The notes under the pieces were generated by a model. The model had not been told where the DNA came from, did no database searches, and worked only from the letters and a program-made list of their open reading frames with translations. 10,049 nt of DNA, taken from a virus. Its lineage: Duplodnaviria; Heunggongvirae; Uroviricota; Caudoviricetes. Made by a program: the position numbers and the translations under genes. The DNA lies in IMG/VR virus record IMGVR_UViG_2690316311_000018, one strand, 5' to 3'. Numbering within the stretch: the first letter of the stretch is position 1; every line of letters begins with the position of its first letter. Shown here piece by piece: positions 1,133 through 1,856 of this stretch.

Positions 1133-1327
1133 AACGATGGGTTAATTCGCTCGTTGTGGTATTGAGATAAAAAGAGGCGGCGCTTACTACCGATTCCGCC
1201 CAGTTGGTCACTTCGACGTATCGTCTGGAACTCCAACCATCGCAGGCTGAGAGGTCTGCAAAATGCAATCCCGAAACAGTTCGCAGGTAATAGTTAGAGC
1301 CTGCATAACGGTTTCGGGATTTTTTAT
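1133..1327 (+). ncRNA. Short constitutive late leader transcript (lambda 6S RNA equivalent), pR' start to tR'
   Basis: Distance from the predicted start (~1133) to the end of the tR' U-tract (~1327) is ~194 nt, the length of lambda 6S RNA. No credible ORF inside. The 5' end is inferred, not observed. Confidence 0.6.
1268..1327 (+). terminator. Rho-independent terminator tR'
   Basis: Perfect 10-bp stem ATCCCGAAAC (1268-1277) / GTTTCGGGAT (1311-1320) enclosing an internal GCAGG/CCTGC sub-stem, followed by TTTTTTAT (1321-1328). Confidence 0.8.
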
Positions 1328-1335
1328 ATCTGTGT

Positions 1336-1602
1336 AACAGGTAAGAGCATTCTCCCTTATGGGGCTTGGCTTAAATGCACCGAGTGCTCTTATCGTTGTG
1401 GCAGCACAACGATAGTTTTCGTCAGAGTTGGCGACTTTGCGGTTTTTTAGAAACTGACCACAAAGATAAATGCAAACGATGATGTTGTTCTGATGGCGGC
1501 GTAATAGCCTGTAAGTCAGCAAGGTCTTCCGACTCCTTGTAAACAAATTCGGCGCACTGGCCCGGTGTGATTAATAATGGGCACACAACAGGTAAGAGCA
1601 TT
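1336..1602 (+). repeat. Exact 16-bp direct repeat AACAGGTAAGAGCATT (1336-1351 and 1587-1602) bounding a ~235-bp segment; each copy has a downstream inverted partner GAGTGCTCTT (1382-1391; 1671-1680)
   Basis: Read directly from the sequence. The repeats are 251 bp apart start to start. Each copy can pair with its partner as a ~10-bp long-range stem. Confidence 0.7.
1391..1414 (+). repeat. Perfect 10-bp palindrome / hairpin TATCGTTGTG-GCAG-CACAACGATA
   Basis: Arms at 1391-1400 and 1405-1414 are exact reverse complements with a 4-nt loop, followed by GTTTTCG. Lies inside the segment bounded by the direct repeats. Confidence 0.6.
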
Positions 1603-1830
1603 AAAGAACTGGCAAAGAGCTTAACGGTCTGCGAAAGCATTTCTTAGTGGCACAACTGGCCGGTACAACTGAGTGCTCTTTCCGGTGTGGTGAATGCGCA
1701 GGCTGATGCGCGCAGGAGAGCTTCGGAAGAACAAGGTGCCTGTATACAAGCCGGAGATCAGCGCCGGCCACCACAGCCAAATCCACCCAGAGCAAAACCG
1801 TTGTTCATCCTTACCATTCACTCAGTATTT

Positions 1831-1856
1831 TGGGCTACACCATCAGCCCATTTTTT
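1831..1856 (+). terminator. Candidate rho-independent terminator, + strand
   Basis: Stem TGGGCT (1831-1836) / AGCCCA (1845-1850), 8-nt loop, then TTTTTT (1851-1856). Confidence 0.5.

Follow-up and report, generated by a model that had tools for sequence, protein, structure and literature searches.

The window analysed here (10,049 nt; IMG/VR virus record IMGVR_UViG_2690316311_000018, Caudoviricetes) is a segment of a lambdoid prophage with an open reading frame (ORF) for a NinI-type phosphatase, the Q gene (432–1055), the pR'/qut/6S/tR' stretch, an untranslated leader, the holin gene S, R, Rz and packaging genes. The pR'/qut/6S/tR' stretch is 97% identical to lambda 44510–44805, and everything 3' of tR' is transcribed only once Q antiterminates. 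Two exact copies of a 16-bp repeat lie just past tR' in the leader, which spans ~800 bp between tR' and S. They belong to an array of RNA elements (1333–1778), the subject of this report, consisting of two hairpin modules (M1 and M2), a core between them that resembles part of transfer-messenger RNA (tmRNA) and a cloverleaf-like domain (domain B). Because it sits between tR' and the holin gene, the array forms the 5' portion of the late mRNA that is produced once Q allows read-through of tR'.

The 16-bp repeat as one strand of a hairpin module

The original prediction, made from the letters of the window, had pointed to the repeat AACAGGTAAGAGCATT at 1336–1351 and 1587–1602 and to a downstream inverted partner for each copy (GAGTGCTCTTATC at 1382–1394 and GAGTGCTCTTTCC at 1671–1683), and all four segments are as described. 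The two copies are identical, and a third match with up to three mismatches was not found in the 10-kb window. Dinucleotide shuffles contain on average 0.13 matches at the same tolerance and reach two in only 1 of 200. The partners themselves lie within a longer direct repeat (ACCGAGTGCTCTTATCGTTGTGG / ACTGAGTGCTCTTTCCGGTGTGG). Structurally, the repeat can be reinterpreted securely: each copy supplies the 5' strand of a hairpin module that is present twice in the leader and in which six outer base pairs, a bulged A and ~12 inner base pairs form a ~19-bp 'clamp' helix that closes a hypervariable insert (pattern CACAAC-A-GGTAAGAGCATT, insert, (C)AGTGCTCTTWCC-GTTGTG).

The same helix, with compensatory changes, is found in dozens of phages, and its pairing goes well beyond chance. 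Using a motif from the segment between the repeats, we gathered 120 further loci from IMG/VR, whose clamps close more than 40 unrelated inserts of 30–190 nt. In 30 distinct clamp variants, with the insert swapped for GAAA, 96.1% of the cells of the 19-bp helix are paired, a percentage inflated by the choice of variants by complementarity (10 pairs used), and 12 of the 19 pairs have changes on both sides. This pairing was equalled by none of 500 shuffles, and slid registers likewise came nowhere near it; the apical pair (columns 20:25), outside the selection criteria, occurs as six pair types. The outer clamp changes with context, being CACAAC/GTTGTG in most loci and CTATC/GATAG where the module stands directly 5' of the core; in Felix O1, the outer strands are AACATT/AATGTT and the inner ones AAAGGGTA/TACCCTTT. 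In minimum free energy (MFE) folds, the lambda module forms the full helix (z = -4.3) and M1 of the window the inner clamp only (z = -3.4). The number of modules per locus ranges from 0 to 3, and their position is fixed relative to the core.

A tmRNA-like core between the modules

The segment between the repeats had been described as lacking a convincing ORF. This holds for ordinary genes, in that the four ORFs overlapping 1208–1887 match no PHROG family and conservation takes the form of paired covariation, not of a protein-coding pattern, but a 10-codon tmRNA-like tag frame set among pseudoknots had been missed. The frame opens, without a start codon, at a GCA resume-type codon. The tag of Escherichia coli tmRNA is ANDENYALAA, and all but 2 of 126 homologous loci have a tag of 10 codons that fits the pattern AN[DES][DEN]xx[LM]x[AV]A (one ends in P), including ANDDLMMVAA, ANEEMYLAVA, ANDEQFLAVA and ANDNTFLAVA; the length of an overlapping AUG frame is not constant among the homologues. 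ARAGORN independently reads the homologous tag ANDNVFLAVA, followed by two stop codons, in Mooglevirus Mijalis. Upstream of the resume codon, AUA at -6 to -4 agrees in alignment with E. coli tmRNA. In tmRNA, U85/A86 are required.

Rfam, in E-value mode, reports tmRNA_permuted (26.3 bits, E=0.0046) and beta_tmRNA, both on 1450–1553 over the tag frame, with scores under gathering (26.3 vs 47 bits for RF04321; 17.2 vs 84 for RF01850). Unrelated siphophages have intergenic DNA with ~80% identity to the whole core. When 46 diverse cores are aligned, full covariation is seen in the pseudoknot past the tag (PK2), whose stem 1 is 96% paired with three compensatory pairs and whose stem 2 is 99.5% paired with compensatory changes in 4/4 pairs (CCGA/UCGG, CCAG/CUGG, CCAA/UUGG, GUCG/CGAC). 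A hairpin that holds the first stop codon in its loop has three compensatory pairs, with 75% of cells paired, partly through misalignment. For the candidate pseudoknot before the tag (PK1), stem 2 hardly varies in sequence, with 94% of its cells paired, and stem 1 is 66% paired and poorly aligned. At the 3' end of the core, the PK3 hairpin has a conserved loop (GUGAUUAAUAA in the alignment) on stems that, read by eye, are family-specific (GCCC/GGGC, CCCTGA/TCAGGG, GCGGGAG/CTCCCGC, CCCCG/CGGGG, GCCCAC/GTGGGC). This loop contains the palindrome ATTAAT at 1570–1575, through which loop–loop (kissing) dimers would be possible in principle.

Given the Rfam matches, the conservation of the tag and the covariation of the stop-codon hairpin and PK2, the segment between the repeats is a tmRNA-type messenger and pseudoknot module. 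The earlier suggestion of a structured RNA element is borne out by the covarying clamp, PK2 and stop-codon hairpin. Its bounds need extending: the ~250-bp segment between the repeats is real, but the element runs on to ~1780, through domain B (Table 1).

Table 1 Features of the late leader in the window
Feature	Position	Strand	Pairing, sequence or basis
tR' terminator of the pR' 6S transcript	1267–1327	+	Upstream boundary; inverted repeat and T run; 97% identity to lambda
Module M1	1333–1400	+	Outer clamp 1333–1338/1395–1400, bulged A1339, inner clamp 1340–1351/1382–1394; first repeat and partner
Perfect 10-bp hairpin	1391–1414	+	TATCGTTGTG-GCAG-CACAACGATA; stem 1391–1400/1405–1414; TTTTCGT follows
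tmRNA-like core	1411–1589	+	Candidate PK1, tag frame, stop-codon hairpin, PK2, PK3 hairpin; Rfam, alignment, pair counts
Candidate pseudoknot PK1	1414–1465	+	AGTTT 1414–1418 with AAACT 1451–1455; CTTTG 1435–1439 with CAAAG 1461–1465
Tag frame	1472–1507	+	GCA AAC GAT GAT GTT GTT CTG ATG GCG GCG TAA TAG; ANDDVVLMAA and two stops
Stop-codon hairpin	1497–1511	+	tmRNA helix-5 analogue; first stop codon in loop
Pseudoknot PK2	1519–1552	+	Stem 1 1519–1524/1535–1540; stem 2 loop CCGA 1529–1532 with TCGG 1549–1552
PK3 hairpin	1559–1583	+	Stem GCCC/GGGC; conserved loop GGTGTGATTAATAAT
Module M2	1584–1689	+	Outer strands 1584–1589/1684–1689, bulged A1590, inner clamp 1591–1602/1671–1683; second repeat and partner
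Domain B	1684–1778	+	Cloverleaf-like four-way junction; MFE fold; GCCA follows
Intrinsic terminator-like hairpin and T6	1831–1856	+	Named tQ in HK620; just 3' of the RNA array

A canonical tRNA-like domain was sought in several ways. In the window, neither ARAGORN nor Rfam (tRNA and tmRNA models) gave one, and a custom scan for a T arm plus an acceptor stem with G3:U70 and CCA gave none linked to the core. Further candidates were rejected in turn. GGGGCTT of the M1 insert was considered as a tmRNA 5' acceptor strand, but a complementary 3' strand with CCA (AAGCYCC-NCCA) occurs in no locus. A D-arm-less tRNA-like sequence in Felix O1 (G3:U70, A73, CCA) is a decayed tRNA-Arg, Mijalis having an ordinary tRNA-Arg(UCU) at that place. 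The ARAGORN tmRNA call in swi2 is spurious, borrowing the T arm of a tRNA-Met and reading a nonsense tag, and the permuted call in Mijalis has the right tag with an acceptor piece ~530 nt off, across three tRNA genes and a promoter. That acceptor piece belongs to a circularly permuted tRNA-like unit of this Citrobacter phage (L132, ~985–1045; T arm, ACCCTTC-G-CCA, AACA, 5' strand GAAGGGT, D arm), which ARAGORN joins to the distant tag frame as a 749-nt 'permuted tmRNA'. Other RNA classes fared no better. The conserved flanks and variable insert prompted the idea of a group I intron in which a homing-endonuclease ORF has decayed, but no Rfam intron family matched at E<=10, and the inserts are too short; GOLLD, ROOL and Y-RNA-like RNAs gave no matches, a YrlA match in P1 covering real tRNA genes.

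Domain B, which comes after the second module, is tRNA-shaped. A 7-bp closing helix (1686–1692/1769–1775) is followed by AAT, hairpin 1 (1696–1711), a variable hairpin (1712–1743) and a T-arm-like hairpin (1750–1768). The same plan recurs in relatives, where the closing helix is UGUGGUG/CACCACA (variants with AUG/CAU, CUG/CAG and GCGGUG/CACCGC) and AAU is followed by a D-arm-like hairpin, a hypervariable centre of 30–150 nt and a T-arm-like hairpin abutting the 3' strand. The closing helix is paired in all sequences compared, and hairpins 1 and 3 covary. The perfect 10-bp hairpin noted in the original prediction was confirmed; by its sequence (GTTGTG-GCAG-CACAAC), it looks like a B-type domain whose interior has been deleted, the closing helix GTTGTG/CACAAC having collapsed on a tetraloop.

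These features raise the question of whether the array amounts to a complete tmRNA of novel topology, with B or a T-arm module as the chargeable domain tethered in cis 3' of the template, an arrangement by which stalled proteins would receive a degron encoded by the phage. The closing helix with its D-arm-like and T-arm-like hairpins, a canonical GTTCGA T loop in some relatives only, the GCCA that follows B in the window, the AUA shared with E. coli tmRNA and the strongly conserved tag all fit such an arrangement. We nevertheless regard it as quite improbable: position 3:70 of B is U3:A70, not G3:U70; CCA is not conserved after B among relatives; neither ARAGORN nor the Rfam tRNA/tmRNA models recognize B; RNase P would be expected to cut B away from the template; and in Mijalis three tRNA genes and a promoter stand between the tag and the permuted acceptor piece that ARAGORN used.

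The resemblance to tmRNA (SsrA; RF00023, permuted RF01849-51 and RF04321) lies in the GCA resume-type codon after AUAAAU, the 10-residue AN(D/E)...(A/V)A tag, which is close to that of E. coli, the stop codon in a hairpin loop, the covarying H-type pseudoknot past the tag with a candidate one before it, and the recovery of the tag region by both ARAGORN and Rfam. By contrast, the phage element is without an acceptor stem formed from its 5' and 3' ends, G3:U70, a conserved CCA and the P2 helix, and past its core come a hairpin module and a cloverleaf-like domain, both closed; it often lies in tRNA clusters or a late mRNA leader. Because no tRNA-like domain was found and the Rfam scores stay under gathering, we file the element, by sequence and structure, as a tmRNA derivative and not as a tmRNA. 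A long-range, P2-like rod between the M1 3' strand and the M2 5' strand was also considered; it is possible in the window but not general, many phages having a promoter instead of M1.

The M1 insert (1352–1381, CTCCCTTATGGGGCTTGGCTTAAATGCACC) recurs directly after PK3 in Felix O1 and Mooglevirus, and likewise in P1-like contigs and in loci L010/L050. Inside it, at 1372–1379, recurs the 8-mer TAAATGCA found at the resume codon (1467–1474); the insert containing this copy (GGCTTAAATGCA) is kept in Felix O1, Mooglevirus, P1-like contigs and L050. The M2 insert (1603–1670) is hypervariable. Its start (AAGAGCATTAAAGAACTGGCAAAG, 1593–1616) is closely similar to the 5' end of a small ATG-initiated ORF-like sequence in Det7 (L006, ~2249–2272; ATGAAGAGCATTAAAGAACTCGCAAAGG), and the clamp 5' strand may, to judge from this similarity, be derived from a coding sequence or be held in common with one.

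Spread across phages and mosaic leaders

A sensitive blastn search with 1411–1780 as query found homologues in 757 phage records. Carriers include HK620, P1, D6, Felix O1-like phages, Ackermannviridae (Det7, Ag3), T1-like siphophages of E. coli and Klebsiella, the N4-like ECBP1 and Erwinia phages, in which the element is intergenic, is unannotated or labelled 'hypothetical protein', and is found within tRNA clusters or next to them. A sigma-70-like promoter of its own, TTGACA-N17-TAKAWT, serves the element in swi2, ZCKP8 and Felix O1. Among E. coli genomes, the version in the window is 100% identical in O26:H11 and other prophages, where PGAP annotates nothing; among species-representative genomes, only four Enterobacterales-type contigs match. 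The virulent phage ECBP1 (L135, 1500–1680) encodes the tag ANDDVVLMAA and two stops exactly as in the window, with PK2 of the P1 type and a pseudo-tRNA directly after PK3, and this identity between an N4-like phage and a lambdoid prophage implies horizontal exchange of the core between unrelated phage families. Literature searches for tmRNA-like RNA in these phages found no description beyond a one-line remark in the Moogle genome announcement that a tmRNA had been found by ARAGORN (PMC4319497).

Some carriers have additional structured elements nearby. In P1 (L004, 1990–3320) and P1-like plasmids (L018), a core with the tag ANDDLMMVAA stands right after dmt; downstream of it come three M modules, tRNA-Asn, tRNA-Thr, B domains and an STnc100 match that stays below threshold (37.8 bits), and the structured RNA left without annotation there amounts to ~1.3 kb. 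The Ackermannviridae copies are preceded by a mini tRNA-like element that has neither an anticodon arm nor an annotation (Det7, L006 ~1280–1375), for which ARAGORN makes no call; its acceptor stem is GGTGAGG/CCTCGCC with U3:G70 in Det7 and GGCGAGG/CCTCGTC with G2:U71 in L033.

Copy number in host genomes bears on the earlier proposal that the segment is the footprint of a small non-autonomous element, and more broadly on a reading of the modules as DNA-level sites, either such an element or folded recombination sites that mark off cassettes in the manner of integron attC. The modules recall such sites in being imperfect inverted repeats whose outer boxes are of the AAC...GTT type and whose centre varies, in having a bulged base and in their cassette-like arrangement with tRNA genes. 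The multi-copy check, however, yielded a median of one copy per carrier E. coli genome, always in a prophage or a P1-like plasmid (the latter giving about half of all matches), and no terminal repeats, target-site duplications or integron-type integrase were seen, although none of these was searched for systematically. The position of the module is moreover fixed relative to the core RNA, and a tRNA or a ribozyme can occupy it, which points to a role at the RNA level. We consider a DNA-level role extremely unlikely, and the footprint proposal is not upheld.

As stated in the original prediction, lambda has exactly one repeat/partner unit (J02459, 44789–44865), directly after tR'; past it, the lambda leader is a diverged domain B closed by GTTGTGCTG...CAGCACAAC, with no tmRNA-like core. 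Relative to lambda, the window does contain an extra repeat/partner unit and ~235 bp, but these did not arise by local duplication. The proposed alignment, run on the window, lambda, the related prophage L051 and HK620, shows a leader that is not collinear with the others but a mosaic of them: it matches lambda as far as 1351, where the first repeat ends, L051 from tR' to 1602, where the second one ends, and HK620 from ~1555 to S. Recombination has played a part here: the two main joints (lambda end 1351, L051 end 1602) are inside the repeat, and the HK620-like start at ~1555 is inside the core. Identical clamp sequences may double as recombination linkers that shuffle cassettes between phages.

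Such joints also lend some credit to the possibility, raised earlier, of a recombination scar, in which homologous recombination at the linkers of lambdoid leaders doubled the repeat and dragged in junk DNA of no function; the main mosaic joints do fall in clamp sequence, and the number of modules per locus varies from none to three. What this reading leaves out is that many phages reuse the hairpin module to whose conserved stem the repeat belongs, its helix maintained by compensatory base changes, and that the segment between the repeats retains ~80% identity across unrelated phage families, covarying pseudoknots and a tag frame of fixed length. Compensatory changes and core conservation already disfavour a mere scar, which we rate as very unlikely.

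In L051, the M2 insert of 193 nt opens with a type-I hammerhead core (7921–7967, minus strand; GCGCGC-CUGACGAG-UCC..GGAC-GAAAC-GC..GC-GUC|GCGCGC), which Rfam Hammerhead_1 (RF00163) matches with a sub-gathering score of 24.7 bits (E=6e-4). An active ribozyme at this place would cut its own late transcript immediately 3' of the tmRNA-like core.

Proposed punctuation and release, and possible function, of the array

The site directly 3' of PK3 differs in content between phages. By motif, it is occupied by a clamp hairpin in 100 of 121 loci; in swi2, P1 and L121 the clamp carries a mini-tRNA insert of D arm plus T arm, in L051 its insert opens with the hammerhead core, and in L044 and ECBP1 the place is taken by a real or pseudo tRNA gene. 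Clamp, mini-tRNA insert, hammerhead and tRNA are all RNA-cleavage signals at this position, and because its occupants share this character we infer that the M modules act as punctuation. Taken together, our analysis makes it on balance probable, if narrowly so, that the clamps are RNA-processing punctuation that frees a tmRNA-derived RNA from the Q-dependent late transcript, and that the released RNA acts on trans-translation. The processing role of the clamps is plausible by itself; the trans function of the released RNA is speculative.

Under this punctuation model, the clamps would be cut endonucleolytically, with ribonuclease III (RNase III) acting on the ~19-bp duplex as the candidate; in relatives with a tRNA, a tRNA-like insert or a hammerhead, the candidate cutters would be tRNA-processing enzymes or the ribozyme itself. 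The clamp has the form of an RNase III substrate, ~two turns of mostly Watson–Crick duplex, here 19 bp that covary and enclose a bulged A. Going by its title, a 1988 paper by Daniels et al. (Virology 167:568; PMID 2849240; cited in PMC7547250) reports that RNase III processes the lambda late transcript. Processing would cut a stable tmRNA-like RNA of ~180–200 nt, plus domain B, out of the late mRNA, and the released RNA could then act on host trans-translation in lytic growth, whether by offering another template for tagging or by serving as a decoy. Since a degron-like tag and the AUA at -6 to -4 have been selectively maintained, the RNA would be expected to be decoded or to engage the trans-translation machinery; since it has no chargeable domain, a decoy or a mechanism not yet known is favoured.

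Several results weigh against the punctuation and release model. A tRNA-like domain with G3:U70 and CCA linked to the core was not found in the window or in most relatives, which leaves the decoding of the tag frame unexplained. Complementarity between the phage RNA and host ssrA is no better than in shuffles, and no promoter-like site was found inside 1330–1480, so that a lysogen may not make the RNA at all. The sub-gathering Rfam scores and the inflated clamp percentage given above belong to the same side of the balance.

The chief rival is a purely cis-acting leader structure that tunes termination, antitermination or late-mRNA stability, with hairpins such as 1390–1415 with its T run and the terminator 1831–1850 among the acting parts, and with the likeness to tmRNA as a relic that has no function in trans. 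It draws on the position of the array in the Q-dependent leader between tR' and S, on the enrichment of terminator-like hairpins in this leader (5 observed versus 1.4 expected) and on lambda, which keeps one module and a B-like domain without the core. On the other hand, virulent phages have the same pattern of core and tag as a separate, promoter-bearing gene in tRNA clusters, far from late leaders, and the tag frame and PK2 are clearly constrained. We therefore hold a purely cis-acting role to be rather unlikely.

Conversely, a stronger claim can be made than that of the punctuation model, namely that enterobacterial phages (HK620-like, lambda-like prophages, P1, Felix O1, Ackermannviridae, N4-like) carry a functional re-wired tmRNA, its tag template and pseudoknot ring uncoupled from, or joined in a new linear topology to, a closed tRNA-like domain (B or T-arm modules), and use it to re-tag or protect the products of stalled ribosomes during infection. 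We find this claim doubtful and put it forward only as an unlikely possibility.

Known systems resemble the array in part. Phage-borne tmRNA genes are standard in the mycobacteriophage Bxz1 group and Bacillus phage G, and DS6A has a tRNA-like domain only (PMC4131195). The element described here is likewise a phage-encoded tmRNA derivative, and DS6A is another case of a partial tmRNA in a phage, but the Enterobacterales phages show the reverse of DS6A, keeping messenger and pseudoknots and lacking a canonical tRNA-like domain. The clamps resemble the RNase III hairpins of T7 (R sites) and lambda (N leader, sib, late leader) in being ~19-bp imperfect, bulged duplexes with a variable apical part between RNA segments of a polycistronic phage transcript; they differ in that the clamp is known here from sequence and covariation, and in that some inserts are tRNA-like or a hammerhead, pointing to other nucleases in other phages. 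tRNA genes, tRNA-like inserts without an anticodon arm and domain B at RNA-segment junctions recall the tRNA punctuation of mitochondrial transcripts and the principle of MALAT1 mascRNA, although most inserts, including both in the window, are without tRNA features.

The genomic niche is also shared with other small RNAs (sRNAs). The Q/pR'-to-holin interval hosts horizontally exchanged sRNAs such as PasA/C/D and STnc100 (RF02076; bioRxiv 10.64898/2026.05.13.724894) and StxS (PMC7547250). These are Hfq-type base-pairing RNAs and not tmRNA-like, but the arrays of P1-like plasmids and of L010/L012 include an STnc100-like cassette; Rfam found no STnc100 match in the window at 900–2300. Downstream of the array, the plus-strand terminator hairpin 1831–1850 and its T6 are followed by a perfect 16-bp inverted repeat (TTTTTTAAAGCGTACT / AGTACGCTTTAAAAAA, 1851–1866 / 1925–1940) and a minus-strand terminator-like hairpin at 1968–1942. 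This combination suggests a further small RNA, possibly antisense, in the Q-to-holin interval that in other prophages is the reported home of the PasA/C/D sRNAs (bioRxiv 10.64898/2026.05.13.724894).

Regardless of whether the core is functional, the conserved clamp and B cassettes account for the long-unexplained hairpin just past lambda tR' and offer a concrete case of conserved linkers at which unrelated phages swap tRNAs, sRNAs, ribozymes and the like as non-coding cassettes. At present, core, clamp and B cassettes are left blank by annotation pipelines. If the core is functional, then P1, HK620, Felix O1 and hundreds of E. coli prophages would carry a ribosome-rescue RNA derivative not previously analysed, phages would manipulate trans-translation or its degron pathway, and these elements would provide a natural test of a tmRNA messenger module working without a canonical tRNA-like domain.

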